From an uncultured Candidatus Saccharibacteria bacterium (GTDB taxonomy: Bacteria > Patescibacteriota > Minisyncoccia > Phycocordibacterales > Phycocordibacteraceae), in assembly GCA_964546795.1 (NCBI GenBank), contig CAZJKG010000001.1:61690-125689 (forward strand): DNA of 64,000 nt. Reading direction: 5' to 3'. Shown piece after piece: positions 2,121-60,528 of the stretch (positions are counted from its first letter, which is position 1; the number at the start of each line of letters is the position of its first letter). Position numbers and translations under genes: made by a program. The notes beneath the pieces are model-generated. The model made no database searches and was not told the DNA's origin. It saw only the letters and a program-made list of their open reading frames with translations.

Positions 2121-2894
2121 CTAACAAGATACATTTGCAACGATGTAATCATATGCTTCATCAACCGAATCTACAACAGTATAGAGCGTCATGTCTTCTT
2201 TATTTATTGTTGCGCGTTCCTGGTAAAGCGTTTTATCAATAAAAGCAAGTAACGGTCCCCAATAGTTTTTTCCAAAGAGGATAATGGGCACCTTGCGGAT
2301 CTTCTTGGTCTGCACAAGAGTGACGATCTCAAAGAATTCATCCAGGGTGCCGAAGCCGCCCGGGAAATAGACGTAGACCTCGGAAGCGTACGTCAGCATG
2401 ACTTTGCGCACAAAGAAATGGTCGAAACCAAATCTTTCGGTGAGATACGGATTGTATTTTTGAACGTCTGGCAGATTGATATTGAGCCCAACCGACGCAC
2501 CGCCCGCTTCGTAGGCACCTTTATTTGCGGCCTGCATGATGCCGGAGCTGCCGCCGGTGATAACAGCGAAACCTCTCTTCGCAAGCCGGCTCGCCAACTC
2601 TTCCGCTTTCTTATAGACATCCTGCTCAAGCGAGGCGCGAGCACTGCCGAAAAAGGATACCGCCAAGCTGTAGCGGCGAATGATATCAAACCCTTCGATG
2701 AACTCGGACATGATTTTGAAGACCCGCCAGGACTCGATTTTTGTCGGTTTGCAGACCAGCGGCGGTCGCTCGGAGGGAATAGTGCGTTGTCCTTCGTGGA
2801 CCGCTTTTGCAAGTCGCTCCGCTGTCTCATGCATGGAAGGTTCGTTCGGTACCGGGAGTATCGCTGATGTAGTTCGCATCACATCCTCATTCAT
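2121..2894 (-). CDS. LOG family protein (TIGR00730; cytokinin riboside 5'-monophosphate phosphoribohydrolase-like)
   Basis: Motifs GGSSGIMQAANKGA, PGGFGTLDEF and a Rossmann-like lysine-decarboxylase fold signature. The N-terminal 60 aa are uncertain, so the start may be later. Confidence 0.7.
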   Translation of the reverse strand: MNEDVMRTTSAILPVPNEPSMHETAERLAKAVHEGQRTIPSERPPLVCKPTKIESWRVFKIMSEFIEGFDIIRRYSLAVSFFGSARASLEQDVYKKAEELASRLAKRGFAVITGGSSGIMQAANKGAYEAGGASVGLNINLPDVQKYNPYLTERFGFDHFFVRKVMLTYASEVYVYFPGGFGTLDEFFEIVTLVQTKKIRKVPIILFGKNYWGPLLAFIDKTLYQERATINKEDMTLYTVVDSVDEAYDYIVANVSC

Positions 2895-20775: not shown

Positions 20776-22344
20776 TTATACTATGGCTTCGTTAAGACGC
20801 GTGATGACAAAATCACGAGGGAGGCCTGCAAGGAACCATCCGGCTTTGGGGCCTGAATCACGGTTCAAGAAAATCCGGTAAATCGCCTGAAAAAGCTCTT
20901 TGGGTTGTATGGGGATTTCGACTTTCAGTTCATGGAGACGCAAATGGAGTTCTTCGCCGGTACGTTCAGATGCCTGAAAAAATTCTGCAAGCATAGCGAG
21001 CGCGTTCTTTTGAGCATCAGAAAGCTCTACCTGCGGCATTTCCTCTTGGAGTTCGTATTTAAATTCTTCAGGCGCATACGTAGTGAGCCAGAACTTTGCA
21101 TACCGCGCGCGCTCCTCAAGCGCCCGCGTTTCGTCTTCCGTAAGGGCGCTACCCTTCGTTCGGGCGGCCTCTTCGTTAAGGGAGAGGTGTGCCATCTGTA
21201 CAATAAAAGCCACCTCCCGAAATCGCATCTGCCAAGGGGCGATAAGCGCCGCGCGCTTCTCAGGAAGTTCGCAAAGTGCGAAGAGGCGCGAATAGTCGTC
21301 CGCCTTCCCTGTACGCACGCCGTCCCCCAGTTCGTCATACCAGTCGTAGAGACGCGGTACCGATTCGCCGGAAGGATCCACATCTATCTGTTCGCGAATA
21401 TCCTTCCCGATAAGTGCAAGACGAAAGATCTCTGCAGGGAAAAGATCGCACATGTCTTTGGCGCTGCTGCCACGACCTTTTGAAGAGGACATTTTCTTCC
21501 CGCCGACAAGGAAGAATTCATATGGTATATCAAAGGGCGGCTCCTGACCGAACAGTTCACGGCACAAGTGATTTGCGACATCGCGTGAGCCGCCCTTTGT
21601 GGAATGGTCTTTGCCGCCACCCTCAATATCGACGCCTTGCGCGATCCACTTCGCCGCCCAATCAACTTTCCAGAAAAGTTTTGTCGTGCCCTTCCATGGC
21701 GTAATACGGCCCGTATGCCCGCAACTCGTTGTGCTATCTGGATTCTTGTCGCAGGCGTAGCCGACGGTCTCGCTGTCGTAGTCGTACGCGTGTGTCGTCA
21801 TCATCTTCCCGCACTTCTCACACACGACCGACACCGGGAGCCATGAGGCGTCCTTCTCGGACCCCGAGACCTCTTTCAAAATACGGCGGACATCATTCGC
21901 TCGTTCAAGTGCGATCTTGATATACGCGTCCATCTTCCCCGATTGGTAGAGTTCGGTCGCCCGATAGTAACTCGGCGTGAATCCGGCTTTTTTGTGCACC
22001 TCCATGAATTCAGCGCCGAAGTACTCTGCATAATTTTTGAAACCCGGTTCAGGACTTGGCACCTTATAGAGCGGCTTCCCGAGATGTTCTCTGAATATTC
22101 CTGCGTCAAGATAGTTCGGTATGGAATCAAACGGGTCAAAGTCGTTAAGCTCAAATCGGAACTCATTCTTGATGCCGTATTCCCCGAGGACTTCCGAAAT
22201 GAGCCCATGGATGGCAACGCCGCGCATCGAGCCCACATGCACCCGGCCGGAAAGCGTCTTTTCGTCCCGAATGATAAAAGTTTTCCCGTCAGTCGGTTTG
22301 CGCGTATCTCGTATCTCGCCGGCTATCCTATCGGCCCACAGCAT
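20776..22344 (-). CDS. lysS: lysyl-tRNA synthetase, class I (archaeal-type)
   Basis: ~520 aa. HVG (HIGH-like) near the N-terminus, KMSSSKG (KMSKS), and the Cys cluster C.KC......C...C typical of class I LysRS. Confidence 0.8.
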   Translation of the reverse strand: MLWADRIAGEIRDTRKPTDGKTFIIRDEKTLSGRVHVGSMRGVAIHGLISEVLGEYGIKNEFRFELNDFDPFDSIPNYLDAGIFREHLGKPLYKVPSPEPGFKNYAEYFGAEFMEVHKKAGFTPSYYRATELYQSGKMDAYIKIALERANDVRRILKEVSGSEKDASWLPVSVVCEKCGKMMTTHAYDYDSETVGYACDKNPDSTTSCGHTGRITPWKGTTKLFWKVDWAAKWIAQGVDIEGGGKDHSTKGGSRDVANHLCRELFGQEPPFDIPYEFFLVGGKKMSSSKGRGSSAKDMCDLFPAEIFRLALIGKDIREQIDVDPSGESVPRLYDWYDELGDGVRTGKADDYSRLFALCELPEKRAALIAPWQMRFREVAFIVQMAHLSLNEEAARTKGSALTEDETRALEERARYAKFWLTTYAPEEFKYELQEEMPQVELSDAQKNALAMLAEFFQASERTGEELHLRLHELKVEIPIQPKELFQAIYRIFLNRDSGPKAGWFLAGLPRDFVITRLNEAIV

Positions 22345-22378: not shown

Positions 22379-24064
22379 TTACGCGGATTGCGCTGGAAAT
22401 TCAACGATGAAGGTTGAGCCCTTGTCGGGGCCGTCGGAGGTGCAGGTGATGGTCCCGCCGTGCGCTTCCACGATATTCTTGGCGATATAAAGACCGTAAC
22501 CGGTGGAATGGATATTCGTTTTCTGCGAATCCTTGCCATGACCGCCCTCGGTGAAAAGATTCTTTTTATCTTCATCGCTGATGCCGACGCCGGTATCCGT
22601 AATAGTGAAAACAATTTTTCCTGTCCCGAGCCCGGCCGAGGGAGCATTCTCTTTTTTCAAGGAAGCGGTAATTGTACCTGCAGGCGTATAGTTGACGGCA
22701 TTCTCAATGAGGTTCCGGAACACATTGTCGGCGATTTTTTCCTTATCGCCGCTCAAGGTGTATGGAGCACCGGAATCATCCGCTGAAAATGAGAGAGTTA
22801 GATTCTTTTCTTTTGCCGTCGGCTGCTCTTTCTCTATAACCTCCGCAATGACCGCCTTGAGGTCAAAAGGCGCTTTTGCATACGTTATCGTTCCCTTCTT
22901 TTGGTTGGCAGCAGTGAGGATATCCGTCACCGAACGAACGCCGTCGCGCGATTGTATGAGCGCGCGAGTAACGAACGGCTTCAGCGGCTCCGGTAATGCT
23001 CCAAAATCACCGTCGGAGAGCGAAGCGAATGCCCCGGCATCTTTGGTCAAAAATCCTTTCACTTCGTGCCCGATAAAGTGAATGAGTCCTTCCTGCCGTT
23101 CATTTGTCTGCTCAAGTTCCACGGCGAGTATCTCGATATGCTCGCGCTGCTCGATTTCTCGTTTGACGCTTCGAACCAAAAATATACCGCTCAACGCGAA
23201 TGCTATGAGTGTTACTGCTGTCAAAAGAAAGTCCTCGGGTACCGTACTATAGAACAAGCGTGCGCCAATAAGGAATACAATTACCCAAACCAGTGCTTGT
23301 GTAGCAAGCAGTTTCACATTAAATGCATGGTACTGGACAATCATATAAGTTAGCAGGACCAAAAACAGGAGCATCCCAAGAGGTCCCCATAAGTTGAATT
23401 CATAAACTCGAGTTATTTCTCCATAAAAATTTGAAAGGAAGAATATTCCTAAAAATAACGCTATTCCTGTGGTAAGAACGGTTATCTGATTCTTGAAATG
23501 CTTATCAGTGGCCTTTCGGTAAGCACTGATGCCAAGGATTATCATGAACGCGATTGCTCCTGGCTCAAGAGCATATAATAGTTGCCAGAGTGTCCCATTG
23601 ATACCTTCACAGTTGTACACATCGTAGGATGTGGCGTTGAATGCTGTTGGTGTAACCACAATGACACCGAGTATAAGCATTCCTAACACGATTTTCCCTA
23701 TAAATGGGATGTCTTGTTTGTAAAAAAAAACATACGCAAAATAAAAAATGCTCAAGAAGATGCTTACTTCAAAAATAGCGGTTAACTGCCAAGAAAAGAA
23801 TAGAACTGTATGGTAGGAAGCAACCCACTGAACAAGTATATTTGCTACCCAGAGTACAAACGATAGCGTTAGCACTAAAAGGAGTCTTGCTTGAAGCAAC
23901 TTCTTATTGTTCCAAACCACATAAAAAGCCACTAATAGAGCCGCAATAATAATTGGAATATAAGAATAGAAAAGAAATGGTGGGGCCGTTGAGAAATCAA
24001 AAAGGCCAAGAAAAGACGGTGCCTCCTCCCCGCAAATAATCTGTCCTAGTTCTGTGAATGGCAT
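22379..24064 (-). CDS. sensor histidine kinase with ~7-TM N-terminal domain
   Basis: Multiple N-terminal TM helices, an H-box IGHEVKG, and HATPase_c G-boxes (GYGLYIAK.IVEAHGG). No response regulator adjacent. Confidence 0.75.
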   Translation of the reverse strand: MPFTELGQIICGEEAPSFLGLFDFSTAPPFLFYSYIPIIIAALLVAFYVVWNNKKLLQARLLLVLTLSFVLWVANILVQWVASYHTVLFFSWQLTAIFEVSIFLSIFYFAYVFFYKQDIPFIGKIVLGMLILGVIVVTPTAFNATSYDVYNCEGINGTLWQLLYALEPGAIAFMIILGISAYRKATDKHFKNQITVLTTGIALFLGIFFLSNFYGEITRVYEFNLWGPLGMLLFLVLLTYMIVQYHAFNVKLLATQALVWVIVFLIGARLFYSTVPEDFLLTAVTLIAFALSGIFLVRSVKREIEQREHIEILAVELEQTNERQEGLIHFIGHEVKGFLTKDAGAFASLSDGDFGALPEPLKPFVTRALIQSRDGVRSVTDILTAANQKKGTITYAKAPFDLKAVIAEVIEKEQPTAKEKNLTLSFSADDSGAPYTLSGDKEKIADNVFRNLIENAVNYTPAGTITASLKKENAPSAGLGTGKIVFTITDTGVGISDEDKKNLFTEGGHGKDSQKTNIHSTGYGLYIAKNIVEAHGGTITCTSDGPDKGSTFIVEFPAQSA

Positions 24065-24066
24065 AA

Positions 24067-24207
24067 CTATTCAAGACTTTCTTCGAGTTCGCCTTCTATA
24101 TTAATAACCGTGAATTCCCCTAAGACTACTGTTCTGTAGTAAGTGATAGCGACTGCAATAACCAGTGCGACCAGAATCACGGTAATAAGGGCTCTTTCTT
24201 TACTCAT
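24067..24207 (-). CDS. hypothetical 46-aa membrane peptide
   Basis: MSKERALITVILVALVIAVAITYY... Its stop abuts the kinase start. Confidence 0.2.
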   Translation of the reverse strand: MSKERALITVILVALVIAVAITYYRTVVLGEFTVINIEGELEESLE

Positions 24208-24216
24208 GGTCAATTG

Positions 24217-25149
24217 CTATTCTATCACGCTGGAAACAACAATTGACGATACTGTGAACTTCTTTAAAAAGGAAACTGGTCGATATTTCATCTTTGATTT
24301 TCTCAAATTTTCTATTCCCAAATCCTGTTCAAAATTCCATAAGGTTAATCCCCTGCTGTTTAAATACTTGGCTATCGAGTACAGTAAAAAGTCGTATATT
24401 CCTGTTTTCTGAGTATCAGCTTTCCAGAAATGTCCTATGCAATAGTCATCTGTAAGTATTTCTTCTATGGAAAAAGCAATGGTGTTGGATTCATTCGAGA
24501 TGGTAGTAATGATGAACTTATGATCATTTTTTAATGAATTGAGTAGTCGAGAAAGAGCTATTCTTTCTTTATGAACTTCAAATTCTTTCCCTTTGGCAAT
24601 TTTGTCCGCTCCCCATAAATCAAGAAGATTTAAAATATGATCTTTCAATCCACTTTCGTTTTTATCTTTCACTTCTACATGATACTGCGAATATAGCTCC
24701 GAAAACTTTCTGACGTTTCGTCGCAAATCTTTAAAAGACCCGCCTTCGAGACGACTTAATGATGGGATATCTAAAATATAGTCAAAATTATTGCGGTCCT
24801 CCATAACCAAAAACTCCTTGTTGTTAGAGTCAGGTATCGAGACCTCGGGAATCAATTCTAGTGACTTCAATAGCTCGTGTTTTTCAGCATAGCCAAGTAA
24901 CGATATTATTGTCTCTTCAATTTTGTTACTTCCTAGAAACGAAAGAAACTGTTCACTTGTGGTGTAGTCCGTGAGGCGGGCAACAAGGTTGCCGTTAAGT
25001 TCTGAAACCATGCGCTCGTCACTGGTATCCCACGCCCACAGACTCGTGAAGTTAAAATCTGAATACGGTGGATACTGGCAAGTGTATGACTCGACTGCTT
25101 TCCTATCATTGACCTCAATTTTCTTAAATTCAGGGAACGTGGGAATCAT
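24217..25149 (-). CDS. DUF2156 (MprF C-terminal / LPG_synthase_C-like) domain protein, putative aminoacyl-tRNA-dependent transferase
   Basis: SDFNFTSLWAWD, FDYILD...L.GG.FKDLRRNVRKF, and HFWKAD...GIYDFL......L...G.TLWNFEQDLGIENLRKSK.KY.P match the DUF2156 consensus. The region is AT-rich. Confidence 0.55.
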   Translation of the reverse strand: MIPTFPEFKKIEVNDRKAVESYTCQYPPYSDFNFTSLWAWDTSDERMVSELNGNLVARLTDYTTSEQFLSFLGSNKIEETIISLLGYAEKHELLKSLELIPEVSIPDSNNKEFLVMEDRNNFDYILDIPSLSRLEGGSFKDLRRNVRKFSELYSQYHVEVKDKNESGLKDHILNLLDLWGADKIAKGKEFEVHKERIALSRLLNSLKNDHKFIITTISNESNTIAFSIEEILTDDYCIGHFWKADTQKTGIYDFLLYSIAKYLNSRGLTLWNFEQDLGIENLRKSKMKYRPVSFLKKFTVSSIVVSSVIE

Positions 25150-25153
25150 CGAG

Positions 25154-25546: not shown

Positions 25547-25626
25547 GCACCTTTATTATATCACCCATTACGTCAACGACAATTTAAAACAAAACCGGCA
25601 ACGATGCGTGTGCATCATTGCCGGCC

Positions 25627-26196
25627 TCAAAACAATTTTACAACCAGGTCATACCCGAGCCAGTTGAGAACTGGAGAAACGTACGGCATGAGCCATCTCC
25701 TGAAAACTTCGATGGCACCAAAGACGAGCGCTCCCCAATACAGATTACTGATCACAATGGCTCCCCAGAAGATCTTCCAGTCTCGTGGGGTCATGGTATG
25801 GTTCTCACTCCCCCGCCGCATATACACGACTGCGATGAACGCGTCGTACTTAATGCAGAGGAAAAGGAAGGCCATAGCGTCGCCACGATCGGCAATTCGC
25901 TGGAAGAACTTTCTGACTTTCCCTGTCGCCTCTCCGTCGCGTACGAGCTTAATCGTCTCAATACCGAGCCAGTCTTGGCCTGTCAGGTCGTAGAACCACA
26001 GGCACCCGAGACAAAGCGCAATTGAGCCGGCGACTGCGTAGAGCCACCCGAGAGCTAGACCATAGACCGCAATAAGATAGGGGTAAACCACGAAGTTGTA
26101 CCCCACTGCCATTGCAGTGTTAGCGGTAAGACCAAGGACTAAGATGCCGATTCGCTTCCAGAAGCGAATCGGGTGATTCGCTTTCTCGAGCGCCAT
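25627..26196 (-). CDS. hypothetical polytopic membrane protein
   Basis: 4-5 predicted TM helices, no motif recognised. Confidence 0.4.
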   Translation of the reverse strand: MALEKANHPIRFWKRIGILVLGLTANTAMAVGYNFVVYPYLIAVYGLALGWLYAVAGSIALCLGCLWFYDLTGQDWLGIETIKLVRDGEATGKVRKFFQRIADRGDAMAFLFLCIKYDAFIAVVYMRRGSENHTMTPRDWKIFWGAIVISNLYWGALVFGAIEVFRRWLMPYVSPVLNWLGYDLVVKLF

Positions 26197-28813: not shown

Positions 28814-29652
28814 GGTGCATTTGGACTCGCTTGCAGAAGAGTATTGAGAAGCGACGCACCCGTATCGCGCAGAACGACCCAGGTGACCGAAAAGAGGTTG
28901 ATTGCAGGAATGATGCGCAGCGTGACCACGGGCGCGAGAGGGTCGCTGTCGATACGCGTAACCCTTCCTATCGCAAGCGCTCCCGGACCGGGGCCGAAGA
29001 CAGTATCGCCCACGGCAATACCCGCAGAGCGTGCAAGCGATGCTCTCATCACTCCCCCGCCAGAGCCCTCAATGGTGAGTGGAATATTTGAAGATCCGAC
29101 CCAGCCGTGAGTTACCATGCCCGGTGCCGAAAAAAGAGTCGCTTGAGAAAAATCGGCAAAGACCGACGAAACGACACCAATGGGCACTCCGCCCGGACCA
29201 AATACTTCCATACCGAGCGTGACGCCTGTATTCATTCCTTCAGCGAGCATGAGCGTATCGTACGAGCTTTCAGGCGGACGGGCGACGACGCCTGCGAGAA
29301 TCCCGGAAGCGCCATTGCGTTCTTTTGCAGAAGAAGCGGGTAACGTCGCAATGCTTGTCGTCTTCTGGAGAAGTGTACGATTCTCGTTCAAGAGGGCGGC
29401 ATTCTCATGCATGAGTGTTTCGTTCTGCAATGCGAGAGCTGCTGTATCGCCCAAACTGGAGAGAACAAAATGACTCTGTGCCGCAAGAGTATCCGCTACA
29501 CGAAAGATTGGTGTGAGTATAGACCAGAAGAAATTCGGCGCGACCAGGCGCAGGAAAAGCGCTAGAACTGCACCAGTAAGCGCGACAGTACCCCACGAAA
29601 AGCCCGTGGATGAAAGGAGCGCATTACGCTTCACTAAGAATGTCTTCTTCAT
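28810..29652 (-). CDS. mreC: rod shape-determining protein MreC
   Basis: TM anchor, coiled coil (LL.EN..L..), and Gly-rich beta domains. Its start overlaps the mreB end. Confidence 0.7.
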   Translation of the reverse strand: MKKTFLVKRNALLSSTGFSWGTVALTGAVLALFLRLVAPNFFWSILTPIFRVADTLAAQSHFVLSSLGDTAALALQNETLMHENAALLNENRTLLQKTTSIATLPASSAKERNGASGILAGVVARPPESSYDTLMLAEGMNTGVTLGMEVFGPGGVPIGVVSSVFADFSQATLFSAPGMVTHGWVGSSNIPLTIEGSGGGVMRASLARSAGIAVGDTVFGPGPGALAIGRVTRIDSDPLAPVVTLRIIPAINLFSVTWVVLRDTGASLLNTLLQASPNAP

Positions 29653-30676
29653 CGATGAAAAAATCTGTGTAAGGCGCAGGATTCTCGGTCACGATGCCCG
29701 CACCGCGCACGACGGCTGAGAGCGGGTCCGGCGCGACTCTGACCGGCACCCCGAGCATTTTCCCGAGTATCTGCGGTAAACCGCGCAAGAGCGCGCCGCC
29801 GCCGAAGACGGTCACGCCGCGCTCGAGGACGTCGGAAAGTAGTTCGGGAGGCGTCGCTTCTATGACTTCTTTCATGGCATCCATGAGCGCATCAAGAGAC
29901 GGCGCGATTGCTTCGCGGATATGCGCGTCGGTAAGCACTATCTCGCGAGGCAGCCCCGTCGCATAATCGCGGCCGCGTACGCTCCGCGAAAGTATCTCGC
30001 TAAGCGGCACGACTGCGCCGATTGTGATCTTGGCATCCTCAGCGGTGCGCTCGCCGATGCCGAGTTTGAACTCGCTACGCACGAAGTCCATAATGTTCTC
30101 GTTGAAACGATCGCCGGCGACATGCGAACTTTTGGCGGCGACAACGCCTTTGAGCGCAATCACGGCGATGTCGGTCGTACCGCCACCAATGTCGAGCACC
30201 ATCGTGCCGACGGCCTCGCTGACCGGCAGTTTCGCGCCTATCGCACCCGCAACGGTTTCCTCGAGGATAATCGCTTCGCGGGCGCCGGCGTTCTTTGCCG
30301 CATCGCGCACCGCACGGCTCTGCACGTTCGTCACGCCGGTCGGCACGCCGATGACGACCCGCGGACCGAACATTCGCGCATGACCGTCCTGCGCTTTATT
30401 GATGAAATACGTGAGCAGTTCCTCGGTTACTTCAAAGTCGGAGATGACGCCGTGGGAAAGTGGACGCACGACGCGAATGTGCGCAGGCGTTTTGCCAAGC
30501 ATGCTTTTCGCTTCCTTCCCCACGGCGACGACCTGATGGGTTTTATCGTTGACCGCCACCACCGAGGGCTCATTAATGACTATACCCTTCCCGCGCACAT
30601 ACACGAGCGTGTTCGCGGTCCCCAGATCGATCGCGATGTCATTACTGAAAAGCAAGTTTTTTGAGAAAAATGCCAT
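29624..30676 (-). CDS. mreB: rod shape-determining protein MreB
   Basis: IDLGTANTLVYV..KGIVINEPSVVA, plus actin-fold phosphate 2 and adenosine motifs. Confidence 0.9.
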   Translation of the reverse strand: MAFFSKNLLFSNDIAIDLGTANTLVYVRGKGIVINEPSVVAVNDKTHQVVAVGKEAKSMLGKTPAHIRVVRPLSHGVISDFEVTEELLTYFINKAQDGHARMFGPRVVIGVPTGVTNVQSRAVRDAAKNAGAREAIILEETVAGAIGAKLPVSEAVGTMVLDIGGGTTDIAVIALKGVVAAKSSHVAGDRFNENIMDFVRSEFKLGIGERTAEDAKITIGAVVPLSEILSRSVRGRDYATGLPREIVLTDAHIREAIAPSLDALMDAMKEVIEATPPELLSDVLERGVTVFGGGALLRGLPQILGKMLGVPVRVAPDPLSAVVRGAGIVTENPAPYTDFFIDEEDILSEA

Positions 30677-35158: not shown

Positions 35159-36184
35159 TTATTGCTTCGCTAAAATGCTTTTCTGATACGTATCCAGGTG
35201 CTTCAGCGCGATGCCGGTGCCGCGCGCGACACAGTAGTAGGGGTCTGATGCGATCTTCGCTATCACACCGGTGCGGCGGTACACAAGCTCCGACATTTGT
35301 CGCAATTGCGAGGAACCGCCGGTCAGAATAATGCCGTTATCAATAATATCGGCCGCGAGCTCGGGCGGGGTTTCCTGCAGCACTTTGCGTATCGCTTGCG
35401 TCATCTCGCGCAATTCCCTTCCCATCGCTTGCACCAAGTCATTGGTCGAGAGTTCAATAGTACGTGGCAAGCCGTTCATGAGGTCGCGGCCTTTGACCGC
35501 TAGAGAAAGTTCTTCATTCATCGGCACCGCGGCTCCTATCTTTATCTTCACTTCTTCCGCGGTCTTGTCGCCTATCGCGAGATTGTGCTGTTTCTTCACG
35601 TAGTCAATGACTGCCCTATCCAGGCGGTCGCCCGCACACTTCACGCTCGTAGAGGCGACGATGCCGCCGAGCGATATCACGGCAACGTCTATCGTGCCGC
35701 CGCCGATGTCCACAACCATGCGCCCCATCGGTTCGTGAATGGGAATGCCCGCGCCGATGGCCGCAAGTATCGGCTCCTTCACCACATACGCGTTCTTCGC
35801 ACCGGCCTTCATTGCCGCTTCAATAACCGCGCGTTTCTCGGTGGACGTCACTCCCGCGGGAACTGAGACGAGGACGGTCGGTTTGAACGGATTCCGGCCG
35901 AGCGCTTTTTTCATGAAATAACGCAACATCGCTTCGGTCACGCGATAGTTTGCGATAACGCCATCTTTCATCGGGCGATACGCGATGATGTCGTCCGGTG
36001 TGCGACCGATCATCTGCTTCGCCTCGGTACCGATGGCGAGGATAGAGTTACCGCCTCGTTTGCTGTGCGTTTTGCCTACGGCGACGACCGATGGTTCGTT
36101 CAGAACGACGCCCTTGCCGGGCACAAAGACGAGCACATTGGTGGTGCCGAGGTCAATGCCGAGCTTTGGAGAAAAGAAAGACAT
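35159..36184 (-). CDS. MreB/Mbl-like actin homologue (second copy)
   Basis: GIDLGTTNVLVFV.GKGVVLNEPSVVAV is an MreB-family sequence distinct from the 29624-30676 copy. Confidence 0.8.
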   Translation of the reverse strand: MSFFSPKLGIDLGTTNVLVFVPGKGVVLNEPSVVAVGKTHSKRGGNSILAIGTEAKQMIGRTPDDIIAYRPMKDGVIANYRVTEAMLRYFMKKALGRNPFKPTVLVSVPAGVTSTEKRAVIEAAMKAGAKNAYVVKEPILAAIGAGIPIHEPMGRMVVDIGGGTIDVAVISLGGIVASTSVKCAGDRLDRAVIDYVKKQHNLAIGDKTAEEVKIKIGAAVPMNEELSLAVKGRDLMNGLPRTIELSTNDLVQAMGRELREMTQAIRKVLQETPPELAADIIDNGIILTGGSSQLRQMSELVYRRTGVIAKIASDPYYCVARGTGIALKHLDTYQKSILAKQ

Positions 36185-38171: not shown

Positions 38172-39578
38172 ATGAAAGAAATCGTGCAAGATGGCACGCC
38201 AGTGTTGCGCGATATCGCATTGCCCGTGCCCGAGGATCTCTTCGGCACCCCGGAGCTCGTGCATCTCATCAAGGACATGGAGGAGGCGCTCGACAAAGAG
38301 ACCGAGGGCGTCGCACTCGCCGCGCCGCAAATAGGAGTGTCGTACCGCGTCTTCATCGTAAGGAAAGACAGAACCCGTCCTTCGCCAAAGGCTACGGAGG
38401 GCACAGCACTTCCCCTACACGCGCCGCGAAGCGGCGCGTCGGGCAAACTTTTAGCGGAGTCGGAAGTTTTAGCCCCCGAAATAGAGGTCTTTATCAATCC
38501 CGAGATTGTAAAGACCTCCCGCAAGCGAGCAAAGACAGACGAAGGATGTCTCTCGGTTCGCGGCGTGTACGGCACGACCAACCGGCACGAACGCGTTACC
38601 ATCCGCGCCCGTCGTCCTGACGGCTCTAAACTAACGCGCGGCGCCGGCGGACTCTTGGCGCAAATATTCGAACATGAAATAGACCATTTGAACGGCATCC
38701 TCTTTATTGACCATGCCGAACATCTCATTCACATAAAGCGTCAATTGGAGCATCGCTTCGCCTATTTCGGTACGCCCCATGTCGCGAGCGATACGCTTGC
38801 CATTCTCATCGAACGCGGGTTTGTACCTTCCGTCGTTGTAACTTCTCCGGACGCGCCGAAAGGTCGGGGTCTTGCTCTTGCACCGTCCGAAACGAAAAAG
38901 CTCGCGCTTGTACACGGTATCCCCGTCATGACTCCGGAAAAATTAGACGCAAATGCAATCGCTGAGATAAATACATTCGCATGCGACTATGCCGTCGTCG
39001 TCGCCTACGGCAAGATATTTCCCGAAGAGCTTATAACCGCATTCCCCCGAGGCGTGGTAAATGTCCATTATTCACTTCTGCCGAAATATCGCGGAGCGAC
39101 ACCGCTTGAGACGGCTCTCCTTTCGGGCGACACGGAGACCGGCGTGACTATACAAGAAATGGTGCGTGAACTTGATGCGGGCGACATCATTGCGCAGAAG
39201 ACCACCGAAATTGCGCTGTTTGAGACCGCGCGCGAGCTGCGAGCGCGACTCATCGATATGGGAGCTTCCCTGCTTGCCGACACTCTCCCCGAATACGCAG
39301 CGGGGCGCATTGAGCCAGTTCCGCAAGACGCCTCCCGCGTCACGCGCACGAGGAAACTCAAAAAAGAAGACGGGCTTCTCTCACTTGATGCTCCTGCCGA
39401 AGTGAACTGGAACAAATACCGCGCATATGCCGACACTATCGGCACCTATTTCTTTGATCCGCCAATCGGCGGAGGTAAGCGAATTAAAATAACGGCGGCC
39501 TCATTTAAAAACGGGGTATTTGTCATCGAGCGCGTCATTCCCGAAGGTAAACGCGAGATGAACTACTCCGCGCGGTAA
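38172..39578 (+). CDS. bifunctional peptide deformylase / methionyl-tRNA formyltransferase fusion (Def-Fmt)
   Basis: The N-terminal half carries PDF motifs G.A.PQIG, EGCLSVRG and HEIDHLNG. The C-terminal half carries Fmt motifs (FGTP, HYSLLPKYRGATP, a C-terminal domain). It is a single uninterrupted 468-codon frame. Confidence 0.8.
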   Translation: MKEIVQDGTPVLRDIALPVPEDLFGTPELVHLIKDMEEALDKETEGVALAAPQIGVSYRVFIVRKDRTRPSPKATEGTALPLHAPRSGASGKLLAESEVLAPEIEVFINPEIVKTSRKRAKTDEGCLSVRGVYGTTNRHERVTIRARRPDGSKLTRGAGGLLAQIFEHEIDHLNGILFIDHAEHLIHIKRQLEHRFAYFGTPHVASDTLAILIERGFVPSVVVTSPDAPKGRGLALAPSETKKLALVHGIPVMTPEKLDANAIAEINTFACDYAVVVAYGKIFPEELITAFPRGVVNVHYSLLPKYRGATPLETALLSGDTETGVTIQEMVRELDAGDIIAQKTTEIALFETARELRARLIDMGASLLADTLPEYAAGRIEPVPQDASRVTRTRKLKKEDGLLSLDAPAEVNWNKYRAYADTIGTYFFDPPIGGGKRIKITAASFKNGVFVIERVIPEGKREMNYSAR

Positions 39579-40969: not shown

Positions 40970-41326
40970 TTGCTACAATTGAGAATAATGGAAAACAAAT
41001 ATCAGAGTGAAATAACAGTGCTACTCAAGCAAGTTCGTCCAAGACTTTCCACCACACACCAATTAGAATTCAAAAATGTATTTGGTGCAGTTGGTGGTTA
41101 TATCAACGGGCACATATTTATTTCGTGTGGAAAGTTTGGAGTTGCGCTTCGGCTTCCGCCGGAAACTCTTGACCAACTTTTTCACGAAAAGAAAGCAAAA
41201 CGCCTTAAATATTTTCCCAAAGGACATATCAAAAAAGAGTATGCGGTGCTTTCAAAACAAGTGCTTGAAAATAAACAAAGGCTGAAAAAACTCGTGGATG
41301 AAAGTATTAAATTTGTGGTAAAATGA
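40970..41326 (+). CDS. TfoX N-terminal domain protein (Sxy/TfoX competence-regulator family, N-domain only)
   Basis: FKNVFGAVGGYINGHIFISCGKFGVALRL, then KYFPKGHIKKEYAVL, matching the TfoX_N pattern. Confidence 0.55.
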   Translation: MLQLRIMENKYQSEITVLLKQVRPRLSTTHQLEFKNVFGAVGGYINGHIFISCGKFGVALRLPPETLDQLFHEKKAKRLKYFPKGHIKKEYAVLSKQVLENKQRLKKLVDESIKFVVK

Positions 41327-41366
41327 AAAGGTCGAAAACATAAATTAACAACTAATCAAAAACATT

Positions 41367-41546
41367 ATGAAGACACTTACATGTGACCTGTGCGAAGTGG
41401 CAGCGGAAGGTGAGACATTTGAGGCATGGATGAAAGCACTTCACCCTCATTATATGGAGGTCCACGCAGATGTTATGAAAAACTCTAAAGAAGGAGATGA
41501 GCAGAAATGGATGGTGGAAAACAAAGCAAGATTTGACGCTGTCTAA
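41367..41546 (+). CDS. DUF1059-like small metal-binding protein (59 aa)
   Basis: MKTLTCDLCEVAAEGETFEAWMKALHPHYMEVH resembles the DUF1059 pattern (MK.F.C...C.F...GET.EE.......H....H). Not in the ORF track because it is under 60 aa. Confidence 0.4.
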   Translation: MKTLTCDLCEVAAEGETFEAWMKALHPHYMEVHADVMKNSKEGDEQKWMVENKARFDAV

Positions 41547-41575
41547 AACGTACATAAAAAATCTTCTAGCGCATC

Positions 41576-41875
41576 ATGCCAAAGAATACTTACAAGATGC
41601 GTTCAAAAGTATGGCCGTATCCCGGTATGGCGGCATGGCGATTCCTCACTCTGGCAAAAAAGCAGGGGCAGGAAATAAAAAAGAAATTTGGTCGATATGC
41701 CAGAGGATGGGGTTCACTCCCCGTTTCGGTAGCTATAGGAACAACGGTCTGGAACACTTCGATTTTTCCTGATAAGAAGTCAGGGTCGTATGTCCTTCCA
41801 CTCAAGGCGAAGATAAGAAAGATTGAGAACATATCCGACCACTCAACCGTGTCGTTTGTTCTAACGTTACGATAG
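41576..41875 (+). CDS. DUF1905 domain protein
   Basis: GWGSLPVSVAIGTTVWNTSIFPDKKSGSYVLPLKAKIRK matches DUF1905. The true start may be at an internal Met. Confidence 0.55.
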   Translation: MPKNTYKMRSKVWPYPGMAAWRFLTLAKKQGQEIKKKFGRYARGWGSLPVSVAIGTTVWNTSIFPDKKSGSYVLPLKAKIRKIENISDHSTVSFVLTLR

Positions 41876-41907
41876 TAACCTCTATCTTTCCATATCGGTT
41901 AGATTAG

Positions 41908-42096
41908 GTGATGACTGAACGTATAACATTGAAATTATTCTGGATGATGATGCTGTTGTGCGCGGGGTCGGCGCTAACCCTTATCTGGGTGGGCGACGTT
42001 TTTCCGGAGAAAATCGTCCCCACCTTCTTTATCTTAGGTTTCGCGAGCTTCTTAATTTGGGCACCCCTGGTTATCTACCGATTCTTGGCAAAATAG
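41908..42096 (+). CDS. hypothetical 2-TM small membrane protein
   Basis: Two hydrophobic helices, no motif. Confidence 0.25.
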   Translation: MMTERITLKLFWMMMLLCAGSALTLIWVGDVFPEKIVPTFFILGFASFLIWAPLVIYRFLAK

Positions 42097-50974: not shown

Positions 50975-51721
50975 GTGGATAACCGTCTTTTAGATATGGT
51001 AAGCTACGGTCATTACATGGATAAAGAAGAGTTGAGAGAACACGAAGCGCTTGCCCGCACGTTGAACGATCCTGCGTTGCGCGCCGCCTATGCCAAACCA
51101 TTTGATGAATATAAAGCGGGATATATCGCCCGCGTGCTCGGAGGTTTCTTGATACGCTCCGGAGGTCTCATATACGGCAGACAACCTTCCTATGCGAAAT
51201 TTAAAGCCATAGAGGTGATAGCGCGCATACCGTATCAGTCCTGGGAAATGGCGGTGTACACGCTCTTGACCGCCTTTTATACCGATGAACAGAAAGCAAT
51301 CGGTCTTGCGAAAACGAGTACTTTCAGCCGCATGGCCCAGGATAACGAGACGATGCATGTGGTCGTCTTGTCCCAGATAGTGTGCCGTCTCAACTGCGAG
51401 GATGTCCTGCGGCACACACTCATTCCCTTCTTCTTTTCCTTCCTGTATTTCTGGACGGTATACGTCCTCTACCTATTCTCGCGACGAGCGGCGTTTGAGC
51501 TCAATTATCTCTTTGAGGCGCATGCGTACGCGCAGTACAGCGAATTTCTGGAGCGCGAGGGCGAGCATCTGAAACAACGTCCCGTTACATCGGATTTCCT
51601 TGCATTCTATGGCCGAGACGTGCGCAGTGAATACGAGCTCTTTGAACTTATCCGTAATGACGAACTCATCCATCGCAACCGTTCCATACGCGAGCTTCAA
51701 GCCAACGCTCTCGTGATATAA
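50975..51721 (+). CDS. alternative oxidase (AOX/PTOX family di-iron carboxylate quinol oxidase)
   Basis: All four iron-ligand helices are present: IEVIARIP (LET.A..P), QDNETMHVVVL (NERMHL), LFEAHAYAQYSEFLE (LEEEA.HSYTEFL) and IRNDELIHRNRS (RADEA.HRDVNH). Hydrophobic membrane-docking helices lie between them. Confidence 0.7.
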   Translation: MDNRLLDMVSYGHYMDKEELREHEALARTLNDPALRAAYAKPFDEYKAGYIARVLGGFLIRSGGLIYGRQPSYAKFKAIEVIARIPYQSWEMAVYTLLTAFYTDEQKAIGLAKTSTFSRMAQDNETMHVVVLSQIVCRLNCEDVLRHTLIPFFFSFLYFWTVYVLYLFSRRAAFELNYLFEAHAYAQYSEFLEREGEHLKQRPVTSDFLAFYGRDVRSEYELFELIRNDELIHRNRSIRELQANALVI

Positions 51722-60156: not shown

Positions 60157-60528
60157 TTAAGGACGCCACCCTTTCTTAATTTTCGTGATTTTATTCTTTT
60201 CGCTCATAAAGATGACGGTCGGACTCATTTTTTCCGCCTCCTTCGCATCAACCCATGCTTCGCCGAGAATAATGACTTTGTCGCCCTTCTGGAAGAACCG
60301 TGCTGGCGGGCCGTTGAGGATGATGTCGCCCCTCCCCTTCTTCCCTTTTACGATATAGGTACGCCAGAGGACAGCGTTACTGACATTCGTTATCTGCACC
60401 ATCTGCCCCGGTAGAAGCCCGGCCGCTTCAAGCAGTGTTTCATCTATCGTGATGGAACCGAGATAATTAAGGTCGGCGTCGGTGACGGTCGCCCGATGCA
60501 GCTTTGCGATACAGACATTTATTAGCAT
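60157..60528 (-). CDS. panD: aspartate 1-decarboxylase
   Basis: MLINVCIAKLHRATVTDADLNYLGSITIDE, with a Gly-Ser processing site and YIV.G.KG.G.I.LNG. Confidence 0.85.
   Translation of the reverse strand: MLINVCIAKLHRATVTDADLNYLGSITIDETLLEAAGLLPGQMVQITNVSNAVLWRTYIVKGKKGRGDIILNGPPARFFQKGDKVIILGEAWVDAKEAEKMSPTVIFMSEKNKITKIKKGWRP

Follow-up and report, generated by a model that had tools for sequence, protein, structure and literature searches.

The window analysed here, a 64 kb stretch of contig CAZJKG010000001.1, is a gene-dense part of a 173 kb Patescibacteria (Parcubacteria/Paceibacteria-like) metagenome contig, ENA ERZ27284378 k139_648605, and the subject of this work is a group of four minus-strand genes within it that encode a SpeD-like decarboxylase, a standalone DUF2156 protein, a small membrane peptide and a membrane histidine kinase (Table 1). 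They belong to a longer minus-strand run with the order MreB, MreC, MreD, PBP2, GreA, the membrane protein mem189, the SpeD-like protein, the DUF2156 protein, an open reading frame (ORF) of 46 or 48 residues and the kinase, which continues with the class I lysyl-tRNA synthetase (LysRS) and then MraZ, RsmH, FtsL, FtsI, and MurE. An earlier sequence-only reading of this DNA had described the kinase, the 46-residue membrane peptide and the standalone PF09924 protein, and the ORFs and Pfam matches show all three to be present as described. It had also placed the LysRS gene about 1.9 kb away, which agrees with the 1.87 kb that we measure between the stop codon of DUF2156 and the beginning of LysRS. 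What it had overlooked is the SpeD-like gene, which ends only 4 nt upstream of DUF2156.

The four genes are tightly packed, with gaps of 4 nt between the SpeD-like gene and DUF2156, 9 nt between DUF2156 and the peptide, and 2 nt between the peptide and the kinase, and from the sequence they are predicted to form one transcription unit. A terminator-like hairpin separates this unit from mem189, and no terminator-like site lies between the kinase and LysRS. The promoter-like site ahead of the SpeD-like gene should be read with the fact that the number of such sites in the region is not above the shuffled expectation. The small ORF (24067-24213) has 48 codons if read from a TTG and 46 if read from the ATG at 24207, as in the public assembly.

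Table 1. Features of the locus (positions in the 64 kb window)
Feature	Positions	Strand	Basis or remark
mem189, 189-aa membrane protein, no family assigned	25627..26196	-	own ORF upstream of the SpeD-like gene
Terminator-like hairpin, 18-bp stem and T-run	25590..25629	-	just past the mem189 stop; splits mem189 from the SpeD operon
Promoter-like site, TTGTCG-16 nt-TATAAT with TG extension	25555..25582	-	9 nt upstream of the SpeD-like start; consensus match only
SpeD-like pyruvoyl-dependent decarboxylase, 130 aa	25154..25546	-	PF02675; first gene of the predicted operon
DUF2156/PF09924 standalone tandem-GNAT protein, 310 aa, soluble	24217..25149	-	Pfam, AlphaFold2 (AF2) model, Foldseek
Cationic inter-domain helix of DUF2156 (aa 134-154)	24688..24750	-	charge in the family; helix H137-152 of the model
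Single-transmembrane peptide, 46 aa	24067..24207	-	TMCys HMM, tblastn, alignment
Membrane histidine kinase, 561 aa: 7-transmembrane sensor, H-box His333, HATPase_c	22379..24064	-	Pfam, hydropathy
Multi-transmembrane sensor region of the kinase (aa 26-302), divergent HisKA_7TM, AT-rich	23159..23989	-	hhalign, hydropathy
HATPase_c catalytic domain of the kinase (aa 445-559)	22388..22732	-	Pfam
Class I LysRS	20776..22344	-	tRNA-synt_1f and TIGR00467

The surroundings of the DUF2156 gene were compared in 80 related loci taken from GTDB species genomes (designated here by L numbers), in which ORFs were called and clustered, and the cluster representatives annotated and searched with hidden Markov models (HMMs). 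Neighbours were counted in the 43 loci whose flanks are complete over ±6 kb. A histidine kinase is found near DUF2156 in 41 of these 43 complete loci, an EamA/DMT transporter in 34, a basic-amino-acid decarboxylase in 32, and a receiver-only response regulator in 20. The order SpeD, DUF2156, transmembrane peptide, 7-transmembrane kinase, as in the window, is common in Paceibacteria. The sequence-only reading had regarded a different conserved operon of known function in relatives as the finding that would speak against it; a conserved decarboxylase-EamA-DUF2156-kinase operon does exist, but no known function is attached to it. We found no paper on DUF2156, MprF, or lysyltransferase in the candidate phyla radiation (CPR), on aminoacyl-tRNA (aa-tRNA) in combination with agmatine, or on this module. 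DUF2156 is thus a known domain family, but the branch studied here is an uncharacterised one in a new conserved context.

The decarboxylase of the module is not always the same enzyme. Over the 80 loci, a SpeD-like AdoMet_dc protein occurs in 30, PvlArgDC (PF01862) in 16, and the pyridoxal phosphate-type OKR_DC_1 (PF01276) in three, and no locus has two of these types together (0/80, with a naive hypergeometric probability of 1.8e-4). The replacement can be followed at a single position in those loci where the kinase, p93 (a 93-residue protein), and mem275 (a 275-residue multi-transmembrane protein) are followed by an oppositely oriented DUF2156 gene and then by EamA and the decarboxylase, the latter being encoded on the minus strand 860-915 nt beyond DUF2156. 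In this slot, the decarboxylase is SpeD-like in L018, L029, L036, and L041, PvlArgDC in L039, L047, L070, and L078, and OKR_DC in L054 and L056. Nothing else speaks as strongly for amine production being part of what the module does as this in situ non-orthologous displacement.

The transporter may have undergone a similar exchange. HMM searches detect no EamA protein in the window, where mem189 is present instead. Homologues of mem189 occur in L040, L052, and L081, in each case beside SpeD/DUF2156 and in a locus that lacks EamA, so that mem189 may represent a second displacement, in which it replaces EamA, although with only three such loci the indication is weak. A version of the module labelled as Saccharibacteria or CPR2 (L063, L076, L077, and L080) combines PvlArgDC with a HisKA_7TM-GAF kinase of ~720 residues; between or beside DUF2156 and PvlArgDC it encodes a ~410-residue protein without a Pfam match in L063, L076, and L080, and a membrane protein of 235-355 residues in L063, L077, and L080.

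Several observations bear on which amine would be produced. The SpeD-like protein matches PF02675 (AdoMet_dc) with 88 bits, and does not reach the TIGR03330 equivalog for S-adenosylmethionine decarboxylase (AdoMetDC; 75.3 vs. a cut-off of 75.65). Its clade retains the processing residues Ser (in ES|H), His, and Cys, and does not conserve the Pro of HTxP, presumably the proline that is described as invariant in bona fide AdoMetDC (PMC10407285). According to the Pfam annotation of all called genes, the 64 kb window encodes no SpeE (PF01564), agmatinase, or DHS protein, and neither a ureohydrolase nor an iminohydrolase was seen in it. The most informative relative is L089 (GCA_030681015.1), which has a SpeD orthologue with 85% identity in the order mem189 (63% identical), SpeD, DHS/SpeY-family gene, and orthologous kinase. 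The DHS/SpeY gene thereby occupies exactly the slot that is filled by DUF2156 and the peptide in the window. SpeY enzymes couple two agmatines, and the arginine decarboxylases that supply these belong to three folds (PMC13625781). In L092, a 75%-identical SpeD orthologue lies beside a separate pair of AdoMet_dc and Spermine_synth genes, and an extra SpeD next to an AdoMet_dc/SpeE pair is the pattern that marks neofunctionalised SpeD proteins (PMC10407285). Because of the PvlArgDC alternative, the SpeY neighbour in L089, and the extra-SpeD pattern in L092, the SpeD-like gene probably encodes an arginine decarboxylase rather than an AdoMetDC, and would yield agmatine. The presence of SpeY in the DUF2156 slot of L089 is consistent with DUF2156 also using agmatine. 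The SpeD of L019 (Peribacteraceae) resembles the ornithine decarboxylase type, and the biochemically tested Kaiserbacteria ornithine decarboxylase OGG79367 could not be recognised among the 120 homologues nearest to the window SpeD, all of which are at least 68% identical to it. Cluster c21 was considered as a homospermidine synthase and ruled out, as its protein is secreted and has an N-terminus resembling a peptidoglycan-binding domain. A LOG-family protein encoded elsewhere in the window (2121-2894, minus strand) carries the Pfam name 'Lysine_decarbox' (PF03641), which might suggest a polyamine enzyme; the protein is no decarboxylase, however, and has no connection with the module.

The DUF2156 protein scores 77.6 bits with PF09924, where the cut-off is 27.5, and the match spans profile positions 10-297 of 298, so that the HMMER check proposed in the sequence-only reading comes out clearly in its favour. 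PF09924 is the sole domain of the 310-residue protein, in which the hydropathy profile shows no hydrophobic or transmembrane segment. The AF2 model (pLDDT 91.3, pTM 0.87) has a tandem (double) GNAT fold, for which the top Foldseek match is 2HQY (Bacteroides BT_3689) with a TM-score of 0.78-0.81 and 23% identity. The MprF C-domains, FemX, Sba18, and Sbb17 follow with TM-scores of 0.5-0.65 and 10-13% identity, and after these come the CoA-dependent tandem GNAT acetyltransferases. The sequence comparisons give the same ranking: 2HQY matches the window protein with E=8e-13 in phmmer, and a profile of the family searched against all PDB sequences finds 2HQY alone (E=3e-35) and no MprF entry at E<=10. 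The standalone PF09924 assignment is therefore borne out by the tandem-GNAT model and by a conserved cationic helix (see below), but the label 'MprF-C-like' that had been attached to it is not, with a TM-score of ~0.6, 10-13% identity, and a profile that reaches only 2HQY. DUF2156 is much nearer to BT_3689 than to MprF, and the name 'phosphatidylglycerol lysyltransferase domain-containing protein' is probably misleading for these genes.

The family is large. There are 635 homologues in a large protein collection, almost all of ~300 residues, with PF09924 only and from CPR lineages, and a profile built from 34 members finds 6589 cluster representatives (clusters counted at 50% identity), 1467 of them at E<=1e-30; among the 150 best clusters listed, nearly all are again of ~300 residues. 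Relatives occur in at least 555 GTDB species representatives. Throughout 34 of 34 family members examined, the inter-domain helix (aa 134-154) carries a net positive charge of +2 to +7 (mean +4.3), while the whole proteins are acidic (mean pI 6.2). In MprF and ErdS, aa-tRNA binding has been ascribed to a cationic inter-domain helix (PMC7334510), but its presence does not prove that DUF2156 uses tRNA. Positively charged residues of the helix in the window protein are K140, R143, R144, R147, and K148, and D276, K286, and H240 are invariant. The Q/RxxGxG/A acetyl-CoA loop is only partially represented in the alignment, as xxxGIY at aa 246-251.

Further hints to the nature of the product come from methyltransferases. 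In several CPR lineages the module has gained insertions that encode PrmA-like methyltransferases (~285 residues) and SET-domain proteins (~180 residues). They separate DUF2156 from the kinase in L024, L010, L081, and L082 and follow shortly after the kinase in L025; L004 (6925-7782) and L050 are further examples. The only informative domain fusion that we met in the DUF2156 family, in an Anaerolineales-labelled metagenome-assembled genome (L058, 5947-7647), joins DUF2156 to a class I S-adenosylmethionine-dependent methyltransferase in a protein of 566 residues. The fusion and the N-methyltransferase neighbours together suggest that the product of the module carries a methylatable amine. Other long members are not fusions, since P0253 and L059 have just low-complexity Pro-rich tails and P0217, P0196, and P0149 contain no extra domain. 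A 237-residue gene of L027 was considered as a GAMT-like methyltransferase and dropped, as it gave no significant Pfam match.

The kinase has a HATPase_c domain (80.3 bits in Pfam) and an H-box with the sequence HFIGHEVKG, and gives no direct Pfam match to HisKA or PF16927. Its N-terminus nevertheless aligns with those of L063-type kinases in hhalign (probability 99.3%, E=1.5e-20), and the L063 kinase itself matches PF16927 (HisKA_7TM). Full-length orthologues lie downstream of DUF2156 in ~25 loci. Three forms of sensor can be distinguished among the relatives: the first consists of mem275 and p93 together with a soluble GAF-HisKA-HATPase kinase, the second is a ~720-residue 7-transmembrane-GAF kinase matching PF16927, and the third, to which the window belongs, is a kinase of 550-600 residues whose N-terminus aligns to the PF16927-type region. 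The idea that mem275 might be the split-off transmembrane domain of the window-type kinase was ruled out by hhalign (probability 1.2%). The window-type kinase is preceded by a 120-150-residue protein with one transmembrane segment and a Cys-rich part, or by a transmembrane-only form of 42-51 residues, the latter in L024, L027, L033, L081, and L082. When all window ORFs were searched, the TMCys HMM matched the window peptide with E=7.8e-4, and tblastn from the short peptide of L027 reached it with E=4e-5. Judged from these matches, the 46-residue peptide is a real conserved small gene, the short form of the transmembrane/Cys-rich kinase partner. Neither the receiver-domain HMM nor Pfam annotation of all called genes reveals a receiver domain or response regulator in the 64 kb window. 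To that extent the earlier description of the kinase as lacking a partner regulator is correct, but 'orphan' is the wrong word for a kinase that neighbours DUF2156 in nearly all complete loci, close to half of which also encode a receiver-only regulator.

Starting from the observed gene identities, fold, operon packing, neighbourhood conservation, and decarboxylase replacement, we infer a decarboxylase substrate, an acceptor and donor for DUF2156, and a role for the kinase. The pyruvoyl SpeD-like decarboxylase would most likely make agmatine from arginine, and the soluble double-GNAT DUF2156 protein would then acylate agmatine or a derivative of it, taking either an aminoacyl group from aa-tRNA or an acetyl group from acetyl-CoA. 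A transporter, which is EamA in most relatives and perhaps mem189 here, would move the substrate or the product across the membrane, and the 7-transmembrane kinase with its small transmembrane partner would sense an envelope or extracellular cue and regulate through a receiver-only protein encoded elsewhere. We put this decarboxylase-agmatine-DUF2156-transporter-kinase module forward as a tentative explanation, somewhat more likely to be wrong than right. A narrower form of it, in which DUF2156 is an aa-tRNA-dependent transferase acting on agmatine or a polyamine, and in which the product is N-methylated in some lineages, exported as a cationic conjugate by EamA, and sensed by the kinase with its Cys-rich or short transmembrane partner, is distinctly unlikely as a complete scheme; if it were true, it would amount to a CPR-wide self-produced signal or surface-charge system of relevance to the epibiotic lifestyle.

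A number of points weigh against the agmatine module. The link between the product of the decarboxylase and the substrate of DUF2156 is one of gene association, and 11 of the 43 complete loci have no decarboxylase within 6 kb. Conversely, SpeD-like orthologues also occur without DUF2156 (L090, L091, and L092). Sequence motifs alone did not separate arginine decarboxylase, ornithine decarboxylase, and AdoMetDC for the SpeD-like protein. The evidence on the acyl donor is divided between aa-tRNA, to which the conserved cationic helix points, and acetyl-CoA: 2HQY is reported to hold acetyl-CoA (PMC10700544), which speaks against the aa-tRNA option, and there is no consistent tRNA gene and no single type of aminoacyl-tRNA synthetase beside the module. 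Aminoacylation of the envelope or of a small molecule is possible. The probability that is left over by the readings weighed here covers functions outside them.

The alternative that survives best is an envelope-charge module similar to MprF, in which DUF2156 would put Lys, Ala, or Arg from aa-tRNA on a membrane lipid, EamA, mem275, or mem189 would act as the flippase, and the kinase would sense cationic or envelope stress, with exported agmatine or polyamine adding further surface charge. Membership of PF09924, the tandem GNAT fold, and the occurrence of MprF C-domains among the structural matches all fit this proposal, as does the constant company of multi-transmembrane proteins and a membrane kinase. 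So does the cationic helix, which is conserved here as it is in aa-tRNA-using DUF2156 domains (PMC7334510). On the other hand, the protein is acidic and soluble, with neither a transmembrane anchor nor a flippase domain, the family profile establishes no sequence relation to MprF, and Pfam does not connect mem275 with the MprF transmembrane domain. The amine N-methyltransferases found nearby recall N-methylated aminolipids, and the control of mprF by GraS/ApsS and the P. aeruginosa speD2-speE2-pmrAB operon offer parallels for a regulated system of this kind. An MprF-like role would, however, leave unexplained why three different decarboxylases appear in the adjacent slot and why SpeY replaces DUF2156 in L089, and we consider it rather doubtful.

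A second alternative takes the similarity to 2HQY at face value. The H. pylori DUF2156 protein HPB8_1270 behaves as a protein lysine acetyltransferase and is needed for lysine acetylation of RNase J, and 2HQY, as noted, was reported with acetyl-CoA (PMC10700544). DUF2156 might accordingly be an acetyl-CoA-dependent protein lysine acetyltransferase, possibly acting on neighbouring signalling proteins and unrelated to the decarboxylase product. The 2HQY match is significant both for the single sequence and for the family profile, with a TM-score close to 0.8, but the identity is only 23%, CoA binding would not call for the conserved cationic helix, and the decarboxylase and EamA neighbours and the methyltransferase fusion are left unexplained. 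This function therefore appears quite improbable.

The position of the window gene between MreBCD-PBP2 and MraZ-RsmH-FtsL-FtsI-MurE, together with the presence of FemX among the structural matches, could point to a FemX-like cell-wall enzyme that transfers an amino acid from aa-tRNA onto a peptidoglycan precursor. This is very unlikely, as PBP2, FtsI, MraZ, RsmH, FtsL, MreC, and MreD are each found in 0 of the 80 related loci, two weak tblastn matches to MreB (24-25% identity) are genes of ~626-629 residues beside DnaJ that look like Hsp70, and the similarity to FemX is remote (TM-score 0.6, 11% identity).

The last alternative concerns the origin of the locus. The sequence-only reading had noted a sharp drop in GC content across 24100-25150 and had taken it as a sign of horizontal acquisition. 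The drop itself is real, with values of 0.34-0.41 against a background of ~0.52-0.55, but the GC-poor tract is wider than described: it starts at ~23100, runs to ~25000, and includes the half of the kinase gene that codes for the 7-transmembrane region, the peptide gene, and the greater part of DUF2156. The GC content at third codon positions (GC3) is 0.28-0.45 in the tract, including 0.35-0.45 in the 7-transmembrane half of the kinase, vs. 0.53-0.68 for the core of the kinase and 0.59 for the genes nearby. The same step recurs in orthologous loci. DUF2156 is AT-richer than its neighbours in 53 of 55 loci, on average by 7.7 GC points (7.2 at GC3 and 8.0 at the first two codon positions), and in 17 of 17 long-kinase orthologues the 7-transmembrane half has a lower GC3 than the core, with a mean difference of 12 points; the genomes concerned have background GC3 values ranging from 0.20 to 0.66. 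The low GC content is thus a family-wide trait and not evidence of recent acquisition, and a local AT-rich patch is an unsafe sign of horizontal transfer here. DUF2156 is generally ~50% identical where SpeD on the same contig is ~80% identical, so that the divergence of DUF2156 is attributable to the rate at which it evolves.

It is true that the AT-rich tract falls on that portion of the locus which differs from the closest available relative, L089, namely the content of the slot and the N-terminal half of the kinase, which is ~30% identical over aa 1-250 compared with ~67% over aa 251-561. The DHS/SpeY gene of L089 (10531-11628) is AT-rich as well (GC3 0.40 vs. 0.57-0.67). A cassette exchange among CPR lineages is possible, and the synonymous AT bias could be caused by a variable cassette or by a codon-usage effect. 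A mobile-element origin of the tract was rejected, since the phage and plasmid collections contain no close relatives and yield only Bacteroides-type matches of ~25% identity. Two further AT-rich patches in the window (GC 0.42-0.44), at 41000-42000 and 1-2000, carry TfoX_N, DUF1905, and HicA-like toxin genes.

The proposed functional tie to LysRS does not survive the comparison either. Searches with tblastn place class I LysRS near DUF2156 in none of the 80 related loci, and class II LysRS lies near the module only in four syntenic loci (L069, L072, L073, and L074). Other aminoacyl-tRNA synthetases are at least as frequent, with TrpRS in 10 loci and CysRS in eight, and these neighbours are treated as synteny or chance in gene-dense genomes. 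ARAGORN detected nine assorted tRNA genes in 60 loci, none of them adjacent to the module. That the window genes came together by the accident of a recent AT-rich insertion, with LysRS supplying Lys-tRNA, is accordingly highly improbable: the tract does differ from L089 where the flanking SpeD and mem189 genes match it, but the gene order is common in Paceibacteria, the composition is family-wide, the divergence reflects rate, and neither a close phage or plasmid match nor a conserved class I LysRS is found.

Among known systems, BT_3689 (2HQY) and HPB8_1270 resemble the window protein most closely, being ~300 residues long, standalone, and soluble, with a tandem GNAT fold that superimposes with a TM-score of 0.8. 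The BT_3689 type shares with it the motifs YSDFNF/DLSFSNL, EDRxxxDY, the cationic helix KGxKFxxKR, and NxEQDLGIxGLRxxKxxYxP. The identity is nevertheless only 23%, the CPR family has a decarboxylase-EamA-kinase neighbourhood of its own, and BT_3689 itself is without an assigned function. In Parabacteroides distasonis (L087, NZ_OY725748.1, 112582-116391), a BT_3689-like DUF2156 gene has an SLC13 permease gene on one side and another GNAT N-acetyltransferase gene on the other, possibly a parallel unit that again pairs a transporter with an acyltransferase. The MprF C-domain (4V34, 4V36, 5VRV, and 7DUW) has the Pfam family, the double GNAT fold, and the cationic helix in common with the window protein; it differs by its fusion to a flippase and transmembrane region, of which the window protein has none, and the context in the window is amine-forming rather than one of lipid synthesis.

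Precedents for the acylation of a small amine come from antibiotic biosynthesis. Sba18 and Sbb17 (9WQY/9WQW), which are structural matches with TM-scores of 0.52-0.56, carry out aa-tRNA-dependent acylation of the small-molecule amine streptothrisamine, and VlmA is reportedly a standalone enzyme of the DUF2156 fold class that acylates a small-molecule hydroxylamine in an aa-tRNA-dependent manner. They share with the proposed agmatine module the logic that the acceptor amine is made by an adjacent gene, but they belong to actinomycete antibiotic clusters, whereas the CPR module is housekeeping-like and found in reduced genomes, and their sequence similarity to it is remote. On the polyamine side, the speDA-speY clusters for agmatine-dependent homospermidine (PMC10407285, PMC13625781) have a SpeD without an adjacent SpeE and draw on three interchangeable arginine decarboxylase folds, much as three decarboxylase folds replace each other in the CPR module. 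The difference is that DUF2156 and the transmembrane peptide replace SpeY in the window. B. subtilis blt-bltD, which encodes a polyamine efflux pump and a spermidine acetyltransferase, and P. aeruginosa PA4773-4775-pmrAB combine polyamine synthesis or modification with a transporter and, in Pseudomonas, also with a two-component sensor. They are analogous only, the SpeD-like protein being the one homologous component. With HisKA_7TM (PF16927) kinases, the window kinase shares the 7-transmembrane N-terminus (by the 99.3% hhalign match), the H-box, and HATPase_c; it is distinguished by the missing direct Pfam match, a dedicated small transmembrane partner, and the absence of a nearby cognate regulator.

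DUF2156/Fem-type transferases are known for the aminoacylation of lipids, cell walls, and antibiotics, and the module would connect them with the recently revised agmatine-centred polyamine metabolism, two fields that have so far been unlinked. Patescibacteria genomes are very small, so a multi-gene module that is kept in hundreds of species likely matters for their lifestyle. The module could help to assign a function to a large uncharacterised family, including the BT_3689 group of gut Bacteroides.

Several other genes of the window deserve mention. PanD (PF02261), the pyruvoyl aspartate 1-decarboxylase, is encoded at 60157-60528 on the minus strand and hints at synthesis of beta-alanine and CoA precursors, which bears on the availability of acetyl-CoA as a donor. 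An alternative oxidase (PF01786, AOX; 50975-51721, plus strand), which is unusual for Patescibacteria, lies by glutaredoxin, glutamine synthetase, and ammonium transporter genes. The gene at 38172-39578 (plus strand) encodes a 468-residue Def-Fmt fusion of peptide deformylase with the N-terminal domain of methionyl-tRNA formyltransferase. Finally, two MreB paralogues are encoded on the minus strand within 6 kb of each other, at 35159-36184 and 29624-30676, the second of them outside the mreBCD-PBP2 cluster.

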